Shown in pieces: positions 12,152-32,392 of a DNA stretch of 64,000 nucleotides. Position 1 is the stretch's first letter. Each line of letters opens with the position of its first letter. Under the pieces are notes generated by a model, which worked only from the letters and a program-made list of their open reading frames with translations, was not told the origin of the DNA and searched no databases. Position numbers and translations under genes: made by a program. Source of the DNA: Escherichia phage Murica; sequence record NC_041871.1; one strand, given 5' to 3'.

Positions 12152-13063
12152 TTATTTCCCGTTAACTTTGTTGTAGTTTCCCTGCTCAGATGGGACTATG
12201 GTAGAAGGTCTTCCATATTCCTGATAATACCAATCCGCAGCCGATTGGGTAACACCGTTTTCATCTGTCCACATCATAGATTTGTATGGCTGCCACTCCT
12301 CTGCAGCGTTTGTGGATGCAGTGTCTGCGAATGCTCCTGTGTCCCTCTTGTTACCTACGTTACTACCATTCTTACAGTCGTTGACAGCGCCTTTTTGTTG
12401 GGTCTTGCCTACTTTCTTAGGATTGCTGTATACAGTTGCATTAACAACCTTATTCAAGTAGAATGTGCGGAACTCTGTAAGTTCTACATCAAACACCATT
12501 GCAGCGCCTTCACCAACAGACTTGTTGGCAGAAAGACTGGTTATGATGTAGTTCTCAAGAAGTCTCTCCTCGGTAACCAAAGAAACCAACTGTCGCTTAT
12601 TGATAATCTCAGTCAAAGCCTCCAATGCAGCGCCTGGTCGCATAGATGCTGCAGGGTTTTTAGAGTCAGTATTCCTATCAATGTAGTTTTGCTCATAGAT
12701 TATGTGTGGGGATGTATTTACCCTACCAGTAAAAGAAAATACACCATCTTTAATTACGGCGTGGTCTGACAGGGTAGATTTATCTTCCACCGCAAACCCA
12801 GTCTTATCAACAGAATGTTTGAAAGAGTAATTCTCAACCTGATCGAAGATAATGGCAAGATCGTTAGTAAAGTTTTTACCCTTCATCTCCGTATTGCGAC
12901 CGCCATAGTTAAGACCGCTGACAAACATAGTGTACTTTACATCGCTTTCAGTTTGCTGCTCTGCCTTTTCAGCCTTTGGAGATTTAACCTCTTGAGGCTT
13001 GTACAGGTCTTTTTCATCAACTATATTGCTTGGCATAACCTCTCCAGGACACTCCGATACCAT
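12152..13063 (-). CDS. hypothetical tail protein (distal tail candidate)
   Basis: 303-aa ORF directly downstream of the tape measure gene. Confidence 0.45.
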   Translation of the reverse strand: MVSECPGEVMPSNIVDEKDLYKPQEVKSPKAEKAEQQTESDVKYTMFVSGLNYGGRNTEMKGKNFTNDLAIIFDQVENYSFKHSVDKTGFAVEDKSTLSDHAVIKDGVFSFTGRVNTSPHIIYEQNYIDRNTDSKNPAASMRPGAALEALTEIINKRQLVSLVTEERLLENYIITSLSANKSVGEGAAMVFDVELTEFRTFYLNKVVNATVYSNPKKVGKTQQKGAVNDCKNGSNVGNKRDTGAFADTASTNAAEEWQPYKSMMWTDENGVTQSAADWYYQEYGRPSTIVPSEQGNYNKVNGK

Positions 13064-19354: not shown

Positions 19355-19813
19355 TTACTGTCCGATTTTAAAGGTTGCAGATTCAAGCAGCACATCGTAA
19401 TGCCGCATAGCCTCGTTGAAGCCTTTCTCTTGTGCCCACTGCTCGCTAACAGTAGGATTACTAAACTGCCCAGCCTCAATAACAAACTGGATAGCTTTGG
19501 CCCCTGTGTCCCCCATCTGCTTAAGAATAGCCTCTGCACTTGATCCTCTAGCCATAGCTCTCAACAATTTTTCTGTCAAGGTCTGTAGTTGAGTGCTGTG
19601 AAATGCAAAGGCTGTCTCCATGAAATTGCGAACAGGCAGCCCGTTCCAACCGAAGTTGTGAATGGCTGCCAATGTTGCCATATTTAAGCCTGACGGGTGA
19701 GGTTCATCATAAAAGCCGTAGGTTATTGTTTTACTTTCAAGTCTCACAAGTTCTTTGTAGAAGCTATCTAAACGCTTTAGGTTGAACCTTGTTTGACATT
19801 TAACCTTTAGCAT
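19355..19813 (-). CDS. hypothetical protein (head completion candidate)
   Basis: ORF track 19355..19825 trimmed to ATG at 19811-19813 with GAGGG RBS. Confidence 0.4.
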   Translation of the reverse strand: MLKVKCQTRFNLKRLDSFYKELVRLESKTITYGFYDEPHPSGLNMATLAAIHNFGWNGLPVRNFMETAFAFHSTQLQTLTEKLLRAMARGSSAEAILKQMGDTGAKAIQFVIEAGQFSNPTVSEQWAQEKGFNEAMRHYDVLLESATFKIGQ

Positions 19814-20546: not shown

Positions 20547-21392
20547 TTATGCCAGTGCAGCCTCAAAATCTTTCATCATATTTTGGAAAGTTTTTGCCTT
20601 ACTTAAGGTAACACCGTGCTCTTTGGCGAAGGTTTGGAGTGCATCTTTTGAACCACTTTTGTCATCTTCGTTGTTAAGAGCTGCGGCCTGCTGCAGTATG
20701 GCATCAATATCACTGCGAGAAGATCTTGATTCTTGTGCCTGTTCAGGATCCTGCTCAGTGCCTCCCGGTGCAGCCGGATCTGGGGATTCTTCACCGTCAC
20801 CACCAGGTTCAGTAGGACCTACAGGCGGCTCCGGTTCTGGTTCAGGCGGTGGAGCTATTGTAGAAACCAGTCCAAGATTTACAACCTGAGAACGTTTCTT
20901 AGGCCACTCAATGGTGAAAGTTTGGGTATCTTCTTCATAAACAATGTTGCATTGCTCATCGTTTATGGTCACTTTTTTAGGCATCCCTACAGGGTCCCAT
21001 AGATGGCCCTCTGCCACGGAAACTTGGAAAGCAGCATCTACCTCTTTAAACACTGACGGGGTGAGTGTGATATTGACATCCCCGCTTTGCAGTGTTAAAG
21101 TGCTTTCATCAAGGTTCTCTGTGAAGAACAGAAGAATAACACCCATACGGATAGTTGAAATACCAGTATCAATTGGCAGGCCTGTATGTTTTGCAATCTT
21201 CTCGAAGAAGTCTACAATCGTTCTGCACGGATAGTGAACACTGCCAATAACGAATTCTGTTGGTGGCAGCAGGGCTGATAAACCAACATTGATTTCTGGG
21301 TTATATTGTGCTAAAAATTGATAAAAACTTAACTGATTGTTGAAAACTCTTAATAGAGGATCATACTCAACTGGATATACGGCTCTCTTCAC
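20547..21392 (-). CDS. hypothetical structural protein with Pro/Glu-rich linker (PPPEPEPEPP)
   Basis: 281-aa ORF, GTG start with AGGAG RBS; low-complexity linker encoded at 20763-20855. Confidence 0.45.
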   Translation of the reverse strand: MKRAVYPVEYDPLLRVFNNQLSFYQFLAQYNPEINVGLSALLPPTEFVIGSVHYPCRTIVDFFEKIAKHTGLPIDTGISTIRMGVILLFFTENLDESTLTLQSGDVNITLTPSVFKEVDAAFQVSVAEGHLWDPVGMPKKVTINDEQCNIVYEEDTQTFTIEWPKKRSQVVNLGLVSTIAPPPEPEPEPPVGPTEPGGDGEESPDPAAPGGTEQDPEQAQESRSSRSDIDAILQQAAALNNEDDKSGSKDALQTFAKEHGVTLSKAKTFQNMMKDFEAALA

Positions 21393-28713: not shown

Positions 28714-28790
28714 TGGTCTCCACGGAGTGATTCGAACACTCGACCTCCTGATCCCAAATCAGGCGCTCTACCAAGCTGAGCTACGCGGAG
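28714..28790 (-). tRNA. tRNA-Pro (anticodon UGG)
   Basis: cloverleaf folded by hand: 7-bp acceptor, T-loop TTCGAAT, anticodon loop TTTGGGA, encoded CCA. Confidence 0.8.
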
Positions 28791-28801
28791 TATTTATTAT
28801 T

Positions 28802-28876
28802 TGGTGGCCCTGGGTGGAATTGAACCACCGTCTGGCGATTATGAGTCGCTTGCTTGAACCTTCCAGCTACAGGGCC
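28802..28876 (-). tRNA. tRNA-Met (anticodon CAU; could be lysidine-modified Ile)
   Basis: acceptor GGCCCTG/CAGGGCC, anticodon loop CTCATAA, T-loop TTCAATT, encoded CCA. Confidence 0.75.
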
Positions 28877-28877
28877 T

Positions 28878-28953
28878 TGGTGCTGATGGCAGGACTTGAA
28901 CCTACAACCTATTGATTACAAATCAATTGCACTACCGATTGTGCTACATCAGC
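28878..28953 (-). tRNA. tRNA-Thr (anticodon UGU)
   Basis: acceptor GCTGATG/CATCAGC, anticodon stem ATTGA/TCAAT with loop TTTGTAA, T-loop TTCAAGT, CCA. Confidence 0.8.
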
Positions 28954-28960
28954 AAAAAGG

Positions 28961-29057
28961 TGCTAGGTGATGGAATCGAACCACCTATGTATTCAACGAC
29001 TACCTCGTCTATTTTCAGGATTAAAAATCCTCGCCCTTGCCAAAGGGCTTACCTAGC
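28961..29057 (-). tRNA. atypical 97-nt tRNA-like element (anticodon unresolved, possibly UUU; very long variable region)
   Basis: perfect 7-bp acceptor pairing GCTAGGT/ACCTAGC, canonical T-arm GGTGG-TTCGATT-CCATC and D-arm, but 65 nt between; no encoded CCA. Confidence 0.45.
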
Positions 29058-29155
29058 TCAGTATGTTGACCATGTTGCTAGTCGGCGATGACGACTGTAA
29101 CATTTGATAATCCGGTTCTGCTTCCGGCTTTCGCTTAATTACAAGGTCAACAATG

Positions 29156-29246
29156 TGGCGGAGAGTAATGGAATCGAACCATCATCGAGTCATCCTCAAC
29201 GGGACGGTTTTCAAGACCGCTTGAGCACCATTGCTCCCTACCCTCC
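29156..29246 (-). tRNA. tRNA-Ser (anticodon UGA), type II
   Basis: 91 nt, acceptor GGAGGGT/ACTCTCC, anticodon loop CTTGAAA, long variable arm, T-loop TTCGATT, CCA. Confidence 0.8.
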
Positions 29247-29360
29247 TTTATAAATTATACTGATAATGACACTGATTTTCGAGCAGTTAGTGACTAGTAT
29301 AAACGACGATAAATATCAATGCCATTATCTGTATTATTTATGCATCTAAAAATATAAATT

Positions 29361-29447
29361 TGGTGGGGAGTGGTGGAGTCGAACCACCCGAGTCGCAATG
29401 ACAATAGATTTACAGTCTACACCGCTACCTCTACGGGATAACTCCCC
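29361..29447 (-). tRNA. tRNA-Tyr (anticodon GUA), type II
   Basis: 87 nt, acceptor GGGGAGT/ACTCCCC, anticodon loop CTGTAAA, long variable arm, T-loop TTCGACT, CCA. Confidence 0.8.
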
Positions 29448-29451
29448 AATT

Positions 29452-29526
29452 TGGCACCCCGTACTGGACTCGAACCAGTGTCAACGGCTTAGAAGGCCGC
29501 TGCTTTATCCACTAAGCTAACAGGGC
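29452..29526 (-). tRNA. tRNA-Arg (anticodon UCU)
   Basis: 75 nt, anticodon loop CTTCTAA, T-arm ACTGG-TTCGAGT-CCAGT, acceptor with two G-U pairs, CCA. Confidence 0.75.
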
Positions 29527-30624: not shown

Positions 30625-30834
30625 TCAACAGATTCCGGCCTTATCCTTCCTGTCTGCGTATTCTTTAATCGCAACCTCATCTGCATTAGTGACCAGGTCT
30701 TCAAAGTAACTCTCAAGCTCCTCGTCAATGTCAGGAGACCAGCTCTTTTTCCTGTCAGTGTGAATTGCAGACTTGTTGAACTTATTACAGTTCTTTGCTA
30801 CCGGGTTGTTCATTAAGCGCTCCTCAGCGTTCAT
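30625..30834 (-). CDS. hypothetical small protein
   Basis: 69-aa ORF, coupled to the upstream gene. Confidence 0.35.
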   Translation of the reverse strand: MNAEERLMNNPVAKNCNKFNKSAIHTDRKKSWSPDIDEELESYFEDLVTNADEVAIKEYADRKDKAGIC

Positions 30835-31402
30835 AGTAAATCTTATTTAACATTACCTCATCCTTTGCAGAAAGGATATCAAGATATGCATCACCAAATC
30901 TTCCTGCAACAACCTCTGCATGATACATCACTTCGTTAACATCGTCAAGAGTGATAACCGGATGACCATATCTTTCTGAATATTGTCTCAGGGTGCGATG
31001 TAACGAGTCGTCATCATATGCAGACTTTTTAATATCACAAACACGACGAATAGCCTTGATGTCGAAAAAACCTGTGCGATACCACCCAAGAAAAAGGTTT
31101 CGTGCAGTGTCAACATCTACATTGATACCATCAAGAACCTTATCTACAAGATAGCTGTCATCCTTTGGACCAGCGTCCTTAGTGCGAATGTAGTTGCCAT
31201 CTTTTCCAGGCGACATCTCCTTCTCATCCCCAACATGCATGCCATCATTTGGCGGTGTTAGCCACTTATCCGGATGCTTACGATCACGAGCGTTAGAATG
31301 ATTACGCTGGAAACCTGGCTTCCACTTGAAAGTTTTCTCCATCTGTTCTTCATTCTGATAACGTTTTGCAATCTTTTCACGGTCATCTTTGCGTGGACTC
31401 AT
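30824..31402 (-). CDS. hypothetical protein
   Basis: 192-aa ORF with a strong GAGGAGG RBS. Confidence 0.5.
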   Translation of the reverse strand: MSPRKDDREKIAKRYQNEEQMEKTFKWKPGFQRNHSNARDRKHPDKWLTPPNDGMHVGDEKEMSPGKDGNYIRTKDAGPKDDSYLVDKVLDGINVDVDTARNLFLGWYRTGFFDIKAIRRVCDIKKSAYDDDSLHRTLRQYSERYGHPVITLDDVNEVMYHAEVVAGRFGDAYLDILSAKDEVMLNKIYYER

Positions 31403-31884
31403 AGCTGCCTCCTCTTCAAGTTATAGAAAAACTCGCTGTATCGCTTTGTAACGAGCTTTTCTATCAAACTGGTGCGATTGCCTTACTTGGTATAGTTTAT
31501 ATGGCTGTGGAGCGATTTAGGGGCCTCATTGTCCGTTTCCACACATAAACTTTATCCAAACTCGCGCGGGAGGCTCTCAACCGACTCCTTACGGCGCTGG
31601 CAAGCTTTCGTCGGTGGTCCACATTAGTGCTCGGCCTTTGGCCTGCGCCGCTTCGCTCCCACACATGTTAACAGACCTGCATGTGTGCACTATGGAGGCC
31701 CGGCATCTCGCCCCTCGTAGGCGAGTGCCAATGAAGGGCCGACACTACCTATAGAAAGTAATAAATTTAAAACATGGTACTTAGGATCTAGTATATTCTA
31801 CATAAGTTAAGTATATGTACTTAGTACCATAAGTACTAGATCTTTTATTTTTTATTATTTAGTTATTTTAGTTATATTCTTTAT

Positions 31885-31967
31885 GTGTCCGTATCACGGA
31901 CAGTTAGTGTCCGTATTACGGGCAGATGTGTCCGCGTGACGGACAGTGGTGTCCGTATCACGGACAG
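31885..31967. repeat. four tandem copies of a palindromic 19-bp iteron (GTGTCCGTATCACGGACAG), period 21-22 bp
   Basis: copies at 31885-31903, 31907-31925, 31928-31946 and 31949-31967; each contains inverted half-sites GTCCG-N5-CGGAC. Confidence 0.85.
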
Positions 31968-32041
31968 TTAATAGTTTCTGTTCCATGGTGAACATAAAAC
32001 ATACAAACCCTTATAGTACAGATATTTAAGTTTTTACTGGT

Positions 32042-32392
32042 CTAACCAGTTGTTGACATTCGAATAACTTCTTCTGGTGGCAAAACTTTGGAAAATGTGC
32101 ATCTTTTACCTCTCCCTTGTGTGGATGTTTCAACCACTCCTGCACATTCTAAAGTTTTAACGCACGCTGCTGCTTTTGTTTTCTTTATCCCAACATCTGC
32201 TGCAATTTTCCTTGTGCTTGGTGTGAAGCGGGAATTTCCTCCAAGCTTATACCAGTTGTGCAGGTAGCAGTATACAATCTTGTCATACAAGTCAAGAACA
32301 ACAACCTCCCCAGTTGTGTCATTCAAAACTTTTGACATAGATAGTATTTCAAGGGGGACTTTAAGATATAGCAGCTTATCCCCATCTTTCAT
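32042..32392 (-). CDS. putative helix-turn-helix DNA-binding protein
   Basis: 116 aa with AGGAGAT RBS; HTH-like segment STRKIAADVGIKKTKAAACVKTLECAGVV; lies next to the iteron array. Confidence 0.4.
   Translation of the reverse strand: MKDGDKLLYLKVPLEILSMSKVLNDTTGEVVVLDLYDKIVYCYLHNWYKLGGNSRFTPSTRKIAADVGIKKTKAAACVKTLECAGVVETSTQGRGKRCTFSKVLPPEEVIRMSTTG

Follow-up and report, generated by a model that had tools for sequence, protein, structure and literature searches.

ColE1 RNA II and RNA I and the countertranscripts of other plasmids are multi-hairpin RNAs encoded beside an origin and common to a plasmid group, with their function residing in conserved loops and covarying stems. The ssi signals (G4-type, phiX174-type, and ssiA and ssiB of RSF1010) are GC-rich, orientation-specific hairpin clusters of 70–150 nt near plasmid or phage origins; it is their folded single strand of DNA that is recognised, and they pass as modules from one replicon to another. 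Among large virulent phages, T4 oriF and oriG and the T7 primary origin set a structured or transcribed segment next to an AT-rich unwinding stretch. The phi29 pRNA is a phage-encoded structured RNA cofactor of virion assembly and a precedent for helper and satellite RNAs docking on shared machinery; it is known only from phi29-like podoviruses and is encoded near a genome end. RNA-based cross-talk between helper and satellite is represented by the CI/C4 RNA of P4, P1 and P7 and by satellite small RNAs, and T4 stable RNAs C and D are noncoding RNAs of the transcription block of a tRNA cluster. A conserved element of rV5-like phages, described here, bears a likeness to each of these systems and departs from each of them.

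The window analysed is a 64,000-nt stretch of Escherichia phage Murica, an rV5-like myophage (Vequintavirus). Positions 31480–31745 had been singled out from the letters of the DNA as a GC-rich island, and this was borne out: GC content is 56.4%, against 43.8% and 33.5% in the left and right flanks and 43.5% in the whole window, and a scan of the 64 kb in 10-nt steps found no second 266-nt stretch as high. The island lies inside a 640-nt gap between two minus-strand genes, rV5 ORF77 and ORF79 (Table 1). Its limits hold for base composition and not for the feature itself, whose left edge is placed by homology at ~31450, about 30 nt further left. In the phages, and in two small plasmids that look like phage satellites (L003 and L033), a landmark, TAACG[AC]G, precedes the core by 143–144 nt. 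The window has one copy of the element, and 117 Vequintavirus records have a single copy at this locus, with identity of ≥90% in 116. No other non-coding sequence found in the window is as constrained.

Table 1. Coordinates of the conserved element, its predicted structural parts and its neighbours in the window; the strand given for the element and its parts is the most likely one.
Feature	Position	Strand	Basis or remark
Whole conserved non-coding element, ~300 nt	31450..31752	+	Extent of phage/satellite similarity; includes the GC-rich island
5' domain (H2, H3, ATTTAGGGGCC motif, helix Pa and loop)	31488..31636	+	Covariance model R1
Hairpin H2, GUAUA-GUU-UAUAU	31490..31502	+	Covariation
Hairpin H3, GCU-GUGG-AGC	31504..31513	+	Covariation
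Conserved single-stranded motif ATTTAGGGGCC	31515..31525	+	Kept in phages and both satellite core types
Helix Pa, 31578–31585 with 31610–31617	31578..31617	+	Presents 24-nt loop UCCUUACGGCGCUGGCAAGCUUUC (31586–31609)
GGCC-UUU-GGCC hairpin	31633..31643	+	Phage-invariant except for one mismatch in L046
CCCACACA motif and 8-bp hairpin CACACAUG/CAUGUGUG	31658..31687	+	Inverted-repeat search
3' module: nested helices GGCCC/GGGCC, GGCA/UGCC, CUCGCC/GGCGAG	31697..31740	+	Folding and covariation
Hairpin H1	31423..31464	-	Inverted repeat; just upstream of the ribosome-binding site of 30824..31402
AT-rich stretch, ~34% GC, interleaved palindromes	31750..31870	.	Plus strand: GAUCUAGUA/UACUAGAUC, then UUUUAUUUUUUAUU
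Four tandem 21–22-bp repeats, each a palindrome (GTGTCCGTATCACGGACAGT)	31885..31970	.	Iteron- or operator-like
116-aa winged-helix protein gene, rV5 ORF79, annotated 'replication initiation protein'	32042..32392	-	
rV5 ORF77, 192 aa, downstream flanking gene	30824..31402	-	Vequintavirus only; no Pfam family

Nucleotide searches of host and phage databases, a check proposed with the original prediction, matched the 117 phage records and the satellites but no E. coli chromosome (5426 genomes). The suggestion of a horizontally acquired fragment therefore survives in part: the element is shared with small plasmid-like satellites, which argues for a functional module, exchanged or inherited together, and against debris, and a source in the host chromosome finds no support. 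An exact 19-mer scan returned one viral contig, another rV5-like phage, and 19 bacterial contigs that the covariance model described below identified as chance seed matches; a metagenome scan gave only further rV5-like phages and satellites. Proteins related to the ORF77 and ORF79 products were found nowhere outside the genus, so other Vequintavirinae offer no syntenic locus for comparison. The literature yielded nothing on the element or on 13-kb plasmids as satellites, and the rV5 genome paper does not discuss the surrounding region (PMC3606486).

The covariance-model search that had also been proposed drew a blank for both phage and satellite copies. Rfam 15 (4227 models, gathering thresholds) gave six tRNA matches in the whole window and none at the element. 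A permissive search of 31300–32100 had rli43 as its best match (24 bits against a threshold of 100, mostly over the AT-rich flank), and the satellite copy had no match at E≤1. The element gave no Rfam match to RNAI or other ColE1-type RNAs, to C4 RNA or, across all 4227 families, to phi29 pRNA; a link to packaging would for this element be conjecture. It is also far larger than C4 RNA, and the rest of the window showed no complementarity of ≥11 nt to it or to its loops that could mark an antisense target. ARAGORN placed seven tRNA genes at 28714–29526 and no tRNA or tmRNA at 31400–31800. As a noncoding RNA candidate in the transcription block of a tRNA cluster the element recalls T4 RNAs C and D; it differs in its distance of 2 kb from the tRNAs, in its probable location on the opposite strand, and in recurring in satellites that have none.

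The case for structure stands on covariation between the aligned copies, not on stability. The minimum free energy of 31450–31760 was no better than that of shuffled sequence (z-score −1.28 on the plus strand and −0.77 on the minus strand), and perfect stems of ≥6 bp numbered 3 against 0.84 expected (p ~0.08). Of the 'hairpin-dense' description the hairpins stand and a density beyond chance, in thermodynamic terms, does not. All three hairpins named at the outset are real (31660–31687, 31707–31725 and 31633–31643), the first pairing CACACATG (31660–31667) with CATGTGTG (31680–31687), one position away from where it had been placed. Folding beyond shuffled sequence was confined to the 3' module and to H1. 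The 3' module (31692–31745) reached −28.6 kcal/mol (z −3.86), and none of 200 shuffles folded as well; H1, on the minus strand, reached −17.6 kcal/mol (z −3.2), with a U-run at its end just before the ribosome-binding site.

Comparison of the copies shows a conserved nucleic-acid structure, not a protein gene, in which several helices are held by compensatory change. Across H2, H3 and Pa, 87% of cells were paired and 8 of 16 pairs changed on both sides, a figure reached by 4 of 500 shuffles, with much of the covariation coming from a few diverged lineages (L006, L032 and the satellites). The covariation score of the three helices was 0.308, compared with ≤0.08 for slid controls. H2 becomes GUGCA..UGCAU in the divergent phage L006 and GUGU..ACAC in L032, three of its five pairs changing on both sides, and its G.U pair becomes G-C or A-U in L040, L032 and L046. 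H3 is GUC..GAC in L006, all satellites have GCC..GGC instead, L037 and L038 show G.U variants, and 100% of cells are paired. In Pa, phage ACCGAC/GUCGGU corresponds to satellite GCUGCC/GGCAGC in an otherwise identical block; all three phage-versus-satellite changes in the 3' arm are compensated. Single-stranded parts are constrained too: the ATTTAGGGGCC motif is nearly invariant, and the Pa loop has one variable position (A or C) across the copies read, plus one G>U in FFH2. A covariance model of this 5' domain (R1) had a single match in the window (178.9 bits, E 1.6e-32) and scored satellites at 34–137 bits; its matches in bacterial genomes cover only an 18–20-nt seed.

In the 3' module, CUCGCC (31707–31712) pairs with GGCGAG (31720–31725). 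Satellite L003 carries GUCA/UGAC for GGCA/UGCC and CUCUCC/GGAGAG for CUCGCC/GGCGAG, both compensatory, and helices with compensatory changes number five in all. The 31658..31687 hairpin occurs in most phages as an 18-nt longer version that keeps a CACACA/UGUGUG base; in L006 it shows one compensatory pair (A-U to C-G), and its 5' part resembles satellite cassettes that begin CCCACACAUGU[AG]AAC. The middle of the element is invariant, so covariation is not applicable there, and for the same reason the GGCC-UUU-GGCC hairpin lies outside the reach of the test. A blind search for covarying columns returned ~400 pairs, spurious products of single diverged sequences and useless at this depth; we therefore counted only stacked helices with several independent events. 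A long-range helix (31631–31639 with 31734–31742), absent from satellite L003, and a GGGAG/CUCC pseudoknot across Pa, broken by two phage variants and compensated by none, were not adopted. Among the fates first envisaged for the island, a structured non-coding RNA is the best-supported reading, with five compensated helices, near-invariant loops and no coding signature.

The second source of comparison is a set of circular E. coli 'plasmid' records of 13.2–14.3 kb that hold blocks of the element at 84–85% identity, exemplified by BLAST blocks 31563–31625 and 31694–31752 in L005; NZ_CP020521.1 is one such plasmid. They encode a Rep-like HTH_36 protein, iterons, a major capsid protein and rV5-type tail proteins. 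A single cluster of the capsid protein comprises 441 member sequences. Their tape-measure protein is 25% identical over 77% of its length to a Vequintavirus protein; a Dit-like protein and a tail-completion protein are 53% and 48% identical to the window products of 12350–12907 and 19385–19726, respectively. Genes for terminase, portal, sheath or tube were not recognised in these records. A small replicon with a subset of helper-related morphogenesis genes and the rest missing is what defines a phage satellite, and this gene content makes the 13–14-kb plasmids look like satellites, presumably mobilised by a helper phage. The element is the sole nucleotide-level match of a 13.7-kb satellite to Vequintavirus genomes (E≤1e-3), while the proteins common to satellites and phages are only 25–54% identical. 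Satellite copies sit next to the iterons and carry extra hairpin cassettes, of which the three-hairpin ones covary without a mismatch. Some satellites swap the phage-type core hairpin for a different one (type-2 core), so the 'invariant loop' is not universal; no phage in our collection has the type-2 core. A search of IMG/VR with the capsid protein returned no satellites. A further RNA, antisense to a head-module gene of the helper, also seems to be encoded by the satellites.

Phages and satellites agree in the surroundings of the element: an AT-rich stretch, palindromic repeats in tandem and an HTH_36 gene lie next to it. Direct repeats of about two helical turns beside an AT-rich stretch, the arrangement of an iteron origin, are found in the phage (four of 21–22 bp) and in the satellites (at least six at 23-bp spacing). 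The ORF79 product falls just under the Pfam cut-offs for HTH_36 (24.5 bits) and DUF6945 (27.4 bits), belongs to PHROG 12838 ('replication initiation protein', by annotation only) and weakly matches phrog_428. It has no BLASTP homology to the satellite Rep-like protein and shares only the HTH_36 family with it. In L006 a different repeat set occupies the repeat position and the ORF79 protein has diverged, with the element unchanged; among satellites, too, the repeats differ and the element does not. The wider neighbourhood consists of early genes (predicted RNA ligase, phosphoesterase and ATPase), with the tRNA cluster 2 kb off. A repressor with its operators would look like the same arrangement of repeats and HTH_36 gene.

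Base-pair wobble and transcription signals bear on the strand. Read on the plus strand, H2, H3 and Pa contain 12 G.U pairs and 9 mismatches; read on the minus strand, 4 G.U pairs and 17 mismatches. The minus strand is the better fit for H1, for a small hairpin at 31545–31555 and for one pair of Pa, and by our own reading the plus-strand lead over independent events appears small. In satellites a plus-strand intrinsic terminator, an 11-bp stem followed by UUUCAUUU, stands directly after the element, and L006 has a terminator-like site on the same strand at the same place. A weak plus-strand promoter-like site, TTGTCA-16-AATTAT, is conserved in the three satellites scanned. No convincing sigma-70 promoter lies directly upstream of the phage element on either strand; TGGTATAGT, considered as an extended −10, is the covarying hairpin H2.

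We tentatively read the island, from comparative evidence, as the core of a structured non-coding RNA gene in a replication-control module of rV5-like phages, most likely on the plus strand and antisense to the flanking genes. The predicted RNA would be ~300 nt long in the phage and 350–450 nt in satellites. Replication control is favoured as the process by position only. Such an RNA would use its invariant single-stranded parts to bind a single conserved partner (a protein of phage or host, or a nucleic acid), and satellites would carry a mimic that engages or titrates the same partner during helper infection.

This candidate RNA departs from its nearest plasmid counterparts in several ways. 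A ColE1-type primer was rejected because the satellite element ends in the terminator (11-bp stem and U-tract) before the iterons, without reading into the origin. Unlike countertranscripts, the element lies off the leader of the rep operon, whose promoter is on its far side, and unlike ColE1, the phage and satellite replicons are probably of the iteron and initiator type. The origins of T4 and T7 are defined by a promoter and an unwinding element, not by a conserved folded RNA, and no promoter was found at the phage element. The replication proteins of rV5 include a family-A DNA polymerase and a T7 gp4-like primase-helicase (PMC3606486). In contrast to ssi signals, the terminator at the element's end points to RNA.

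A competitor, though an unlikely one, is that the element is a cis-acting part of a replication origin, working as folded single-stranded DNA that melting of the adjacent AT-rich stretch would expose (a priming or helicase-loading signal) or as a nascent primer or activator transcript, and kept by satellites for the helper replisome. The adjoining AT-rich stretch, repeats and annotated HTH_36 initiator suit this proposal in phage and satellites, as does an element that stays constant while the repeats and their protein vary and that is the only helper-like sequence in the satellite; selection on hairpins, moreover, suits RNA and single-stranded DNA equally. Cumulative GC skew in the window reaches its minimum at 32–34 kb, 1–2 kb from the element and near the skew change reported for rV5 at 66675–66725 (PMC3606486). 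It also coincides with a switch in gene orientation, so the skew gives no origin location. The strong plus-strand terminator between element and iterons in satellites argues against a read-through primer RNA, and the HTH_36 proteins could be plain repressors with the repeats as their operators. On our own reading, DnaA-box-like motifs (TTATCCAAA at 31552–31560, and CCACA) and T7-type primase sites (TGGTC, GTGTC) in the element are not conserved among phages. The origin of rV5 was never mapped (PMC3606486).

We consider it improbable that the element is a minus-strand feature, either the structured leader or processing region of a leftward transcript running from ORF79 through ORF77 to the tRNA cluster, or a small RNA ending at H1. 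All neighbouring phage genes lie on the minus strand, including the tRNA cluster 2 kb downstream, and in L006 a promoter-like site for that strand stands on the element's right side. H1 folds well on this strand, with its U-run just before the ribosome-binding site, and a direct reading of the alignment shows single-sided substitutions in it that give G.U pairs on the minus strand alone. H1 is probably a separate minus-strand feature that overlaps the element's left edge. Wobble pairs of H2, H3, the Pa extension and one satellite cassette work on the plus strand only, and the terminators at the element's end are on that strand. In the satellites the strong leftward promoters (10–11 of 12 matches) are found on the element's left side, which places it outside the leader of their leftward operon.

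Quite improbable, in our view, is a packaging (pac) signal of the helper, copied by satellites that lack a terminase of their own. The cos site of phage P2 is also present in its satellite P4, a parallel that counts for this proposal together with the absence of a recognised terminase or portal gene from the 15 satellite genes and with the restriction of nucleotide-level satellite/helper similarity to the element. A double-stranded site, however, leaves the hairpin-preserving compensatory changes and the end terminator unexplained. Known pac sites tend to be within or next to the small-terminase gene, but the element has predicted RNA ligase and phosphoesterase genes as its neighbours and the tRNA cluster 2 kb away. 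One of several small satellite proteins of no assigned function could, moreover, be a small terminase. The DNA of rV5 is reported to be circularly permuted (PMC3606486), which implies headful packaging and was counted in favour.

That the island is non-functional DNA, a decayed mobile-element remnant as once suggested or a chance GC-rich patch, is very improbable: its folding energy as a whole is unremarkable and its GC content atypical for the genome, but it is kept at one locus in the 117 phages, intact in 116 of them, with near-invariant loops and covarying helices, and it recurs in satellites whose proteins have diverged to 25–54% identity.

A small protein gene can hardly be credited. The expectation of no ORF above 60 codons was correct, the largest with a start codon being 55 aa (31497..31664, minus, GTG) and 46 aa (plus); the former corresponds to rV5 ORF78 (55–56 aa, minus strand), which is annotated as a hypothetical protein in rV5, ECML-10, MaxTheCat and MiataMamis and whose frame survives a 3-nt deletion in the window, but it starts with GTG, has variable sites spread 15/18/16 over the codon positions and 38 non-synonymous against 9 synonymous changes, is broken in Alma, is not kept in L029, gives way to other open frames in L032 and L006, is interrupted by variable cassettes in satellites and goes unannotated in most records, all six frames being open as expected of GC-rich DNA.

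Returning to the structured RNA, a bolder and rather unlikely extension casts the element as an RNA cofactor of a new type, serving the rV5-type machinery for replication or packaging, with modular satellite versions (two core hairpins, swappable cassettes) that plug their DNA into the helper machinery or jam it. If true, this would be hijacking or interference through RNA mimicry, not through a protein or a plain DNA site. Coliphages of the rV5-like group are common and find wide use in collections for phage therapy and biocontrol, and the small E. coli plasmids that bear the element look like satellites, hitherto undescribed, of a virulent myovirus. Should helper and satellite make contact through this element, it would provide an experimental handle on a plasmid-borne satellite exploiting a lytic phage. 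It would also add a new family of structured RNA, or of single-stranded DNA, whose hairpin cassettes are modular, and might account for phage failure or interference on plasmid-carrying strains. Virus and parasite may both gain access to one machinery through this element.

Over the stretch queried, the window and Escherichia phage vB_EcoM-Pr121LW, a Vequintavirus (rV5-like myophage), are 100% identical. The GC-rich island belongs to a conserved non-coding element (31450..31752) within a 640-nt gap that has minus-strand genes on both sides. Seven tRNA genes are clustered 2 kb further along the minus strand, and genes for a predicted phosphoesterase, a P-loop ATPase and an RNA ligase lie on the other side of the locus. 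The original prediction of a compositional island was borne out: 31480-31745 has a GC content of 56.4%, against 43.8% and 33.5% in its flanks, and no 266-nt stretch in the 64 kb is richer. The reported absence of any ORF above 60 codons also held, the longest with a start codon being 55 and 46 codons. All three hairpins named there are present, with one set of coordinates shifted by one base. The whole island folded no better than shuffled sequence (z = -1.3 for the + strand and -0.8 for the - strand), perfect stems were only marginally more numerous than expected, and the 3' module (31692-31745, z = -3.9) was the only exceptionally stable part. The description is therefore correct, yet composition and hairpins alone are no proof of function.

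The element was found in 117 phage records, all Vequintavirus, as a single copy at the same locus, with at least 90% identity in 116 of them. ORF77 and ORF79 are also restricted to this genus, and E. coli chromosomes gave no match to the element. The host labels of eighteen GenBank records (MG0656xx) named 'Campylobacter phage' are probably wrong, since these carry this rV5-type E. coli locus with 92-99% identity. The PLSDB entry CP057073.1, an E. coli 'plasmid' of 137.6 kb whose size matches an rV5-like phage genome, also carries the rV5-type element. Two segments present in most relatives are missing from the middle of the element in the window, 3 nt (TAT) at 31649-31652 and 18 nt at 31681-31682; loss of the 18 nt takes away the upper part of a long hairpin and leaves its CACACA/UGUGUG base in place. 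The Rfam search proposed with the original prediction returned no match at curated or permissive thresholds for either the phage or a satellite copy, and ARAGORN called no tRNA or tmRNA at the element. Elsewhere, ARAGORN reported a 99-nt tRNA-like gene (28959-29057, minus strand) with a four-base anticodon 'atcc', an Rfam tRNA score of 35.5 bits and no counterpart among the six annotated tRNAs of rV5; one possibility is a tRNA with an intron or some other aberration.

Unannotated DNA of small circular E. coli 'plasmids' (13.2-13.7 kb) contains two blocks of the element at 84-85% identity. Contigs of 13.2-14.3 kb from metagenomes and assemblies supplied further copies, and a 39.6-kb record that matches three times may for that reason be a trimer. 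The replicons examined (L005, NZ_CP020521.1; L003, L004, L026-L028, L033, L035 and L047-L055) encode a Rep-like HTH_36 protein adjoining at least six palindromic 23-bp iterons, and their own major capsid protein. The capsid protein sequences group into 18 clusters with identities of 82% or more throughout, one of them with 441 member sequences. Their tape-measure protein has a Vequintavirus protein as its broadest match (25% identity over 77% of length), and Dit-like and tail-completion proteins are 53% and 48% identical to the window products of 12350-12907 and 19385-19726, respectively. None of their genes was recognized as coding for a terminase, portal, sheath or tube. From this gene content the 13.2-14.3-kb circular replicons look like plasmid-borne satellites of rV5-like phages; we found no paper describing them as such. 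At the nucleotide level (E<=1e-3), the element was the only match between a 13.7-kb satellite and Vequintavirus genomes. A covariance model made from its 5' domain gave a single hit in the window (178.9 bits), found one copy in each satellite, and identified exact 19-mer matches in 19 bacterial contigs as chance.

Phage-satellite similarity begins near 31450, and several helices of the element covary. Hairpin H2 changes from GUAUA/UAUAU to GUGCA/UGCAU in the diverged phage L006 and to GUGU/ACAC in L032, a second diverged phage, and three other phages have G-C or A-U in place of its G.U pair. H3 is GUC/GAC in L006 and GCC/GGC in all satellites, instead of GCU/AGC. Helix Pa is ACCGAC/GUCGGU in phages and GCUGCC/GGCAGC in satellites; all three phage-satellite changes in its 3' arm are compensated, and the rest of the block is identical. 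The 3' module of satellite L003 replaces GGCA/UGCC with GUCA/UGAC and CUCGCC/GGCGAG with CUCUCC/GGAGAG. By formal count, 87% of cells in H2, H3 and Pa are paired, and two-sided changes occur in 8 of 16 pairs, a value reached by 4 of 500 shuffles. The covariation score was 0.308, compared with at most 0.08 for slid partners. When columns were scanned blindly, about 400 pairs came out as covarying, since one diverged sequence alters many columns together; as this makes the scan unreliable, only stacked helices with several independent events were counted. The invariant middle of the element lies outside the reach of the covariation test. The element forms a nucleic-acid structure under constraint, and its single-stranded parts hardly vary.

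Features of the element and its surroundings (anatomy of the element as read on the + strand)
Feature	Position	Strand	Remarks
rV5 ORF77	30824..31402	-	flanks gap
Hairpin H1	31423-31464	-	z -3.2; ends in U-run; kept even in L006
Hairpin H2	31490-31502	+ coordinates	
Hairpin H3	31504-31513	+ coordinates	
Conserved motif ATTTAGGGGCC	31515-31525		followed by variable spacer
Block CGCGCGGGAG	after variable spacer, before Pa		
Helix Pa	31578-31585 with 31610-31617		presents 24-nt loop UCCUUACGGCGCUGGCAAGCUUUC
First CCACA motif and small hairpins	3' of Pa, before CCCACACA hairpin region		
CCCACACA and 8-bp hairpin	31658-31687		
3' module	31697-31740		three nested helices
CCCACAC motif in window	31539, 31619, 31659		
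AT-rich palindromic stretch	31750-31870		right of element in phage
Four tandem 21-22-bp repeats	31885-31970		each a 6-bp-stem palindrome, GTCCGT-ATC-ACGGAC
rV5 ORF79, 116-aa winged-helix protein	32042..32392	-	the HTH_36 gene; annotated 'replication initiation protein'
Second core type	e.g. L055 2740-2850		satellites L047, L048, L052, L053, L055

Satellite copies carry zero to four additional cassettes between core and end, closed or separated by CCCACACA, often paired with UGUGGG. One cassette of three short hairpins exists in six sequence versions in which about eight pairs differ with zero mismatches. The 13.7-kb satellite L005 has 12 copies of CCCACAC (1.3 expected), mostly in non-coding DNA, where the motif borders hairpin cassettes and is often paired with UGUGGG; it showed no enrichment across the phage window. 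Some satellites have a second type of core hairpin, GUCCGGAU and AUCCGGAC around an 18-nt loop, between the same conserved flanks as the phage-type core. This second core was in no phage of the collection; any helper lineage that matches it would therefore have to be an unsampled one.

The surroundings of the element resemble a replication-control module. In the phage, the tandem repeats lie just past the stop codon of the HTH_36 gene; satellites have the order rep operon and promoter, element, C/G-rich hairpin, AT-rich stretch, iterons. L006 keeps the element next to a different repeat set (ATCTGATGCAAATATGTATC, 2211-2345) and a protein of 28% identity, and iterons differ among satellites too. 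The HTH_36 protein and the repeats, judged from sequence, look like a cognate protein/binding-site pair. Repeats and protein vary together while the element is kept, which makes it the constant part of a module common to the phage genus and its apparent satellites. The cumulative GC skew of the window has its minimum at 32-34 kb, near a skew change described in the rV5 genome paper (PMC3606486); this is no proof of an origin, since gene orientation switches there.

Wobble pairs in H2, H3 and Pa point to the + strand (12 G.U and 9 mismatches, against 4 and 17 on the - strand), as does a further wobble in one satellite cassette. Intrinsic terminators on the + strand, each an 11-bp stem with UUUCAUUU behind it, close most satellite copies; L003 is the exception and closes with the phage-type 3' module. 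L006 has + strand terminator-like hairpins and a long U-tract directly after the element, and in typical phages the + strand of the AT-rich stretch offers an AU-rich hairpin of 9 bp that leads into UUUUAUUUUUU. A weak + strand promoter-like site is kept in all three satellites scanned, back to back with the strong leftward rep-operon promoter, an arrangement that places the element outside the rep-operon leader. Counting against this strand, no promoter for the element was found in the phage. The + strand is favored rather than settled. The satellite terminator, located between element and iterons, speaks for a discrete RNA rather than a primer made by read-through. Our leading reading, a tentative one, is that the element gives rise to a discrete RNA that codes for no protein, is probably read from the + strand and would bind one conserved partner through the Pa loop and other invariant segments; the satellites would carry a mimic that engages or titrates this partner upon infection.

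A separate satellite transcript was also predicted. At 2570-2700, L005 has a consensus sigma-70 promoter (TTGACA-17-TATAAT), and the first 35 nt of the predicted transcript match the window + strand at 32 of 35 positions (20697-20731), antisense to a minus-strand helper gene (20547..21392) that lies shortly after the major capsid gene. The same promoter and 3' scaffold are combined with another 5' segment in two further satellites, and in one of them this segment matches elsewhere in that helper gene (14/14; 20908-20921). The pattern suggests that these satellites encode a small antisense RNA whose targeting segment can be exchanged.

A cis-acting origin element, acting as folded single-stranded DNA or as a nascent transcript, would fit both the position of the element and its being the only helper-like sequence of the satellite; we consider this unlikely. 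A minus-strand leader or processing region is a distinctly poorer candidate. H1, one Pa pair and a small hairpin (31545-31555) all fit the minus strand better; H1 stands immediately in front of the ORF77 ribosome-binding site, is probably a minus-strand feature in its own right and may be an attenuator, terminator or processing site of the leftward transcript. The pac site of the helper phage is appealing because no terminase was recognized in the satellites, but it leaves the hairpin covariation and the terminator unexplained and is very unlikely. That the element is non-functional DNA is highly improbable. Least credible of all is the protein gene ORF78 (55-56 aa, minus strand, annotated in some records only): among 17 distinct phage sequences, variable sites number 15/18/16 over the three codon positions and non-synonymous changes exceed synonymous ones (38 vs 9), its frame is lost in several relatives, and the element is open in all six frames, as is normal for GC-rich DNA.

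By analogy, the element would be closest in its working to replication-associated RNAs of plasmids and phages such as ColE1 RNA II/RNA I and countertranscripts. It may also be likened to single-strand initiation signals (G4-type, RSF1010 ssiA/ssiB) and to T4 RNAs C and D, and phi29 pRNA is the nearest precedent for the idea of an RNA cofactor common to helper and satellite. The element was assigned to none of ColE1-type RNAs, countertranscripts, ssi signals and pRNA: it has no Rfam family match, satellite copies neither run into the origin nor overlap the rep leader, and no antisense target of the element was found in the window. The element is real, conserved, structured and non-coding and stands outside all described families, and its interest lies in being shared between a virulent myovirus and its apparently undescribed plasmid-borne satellites.
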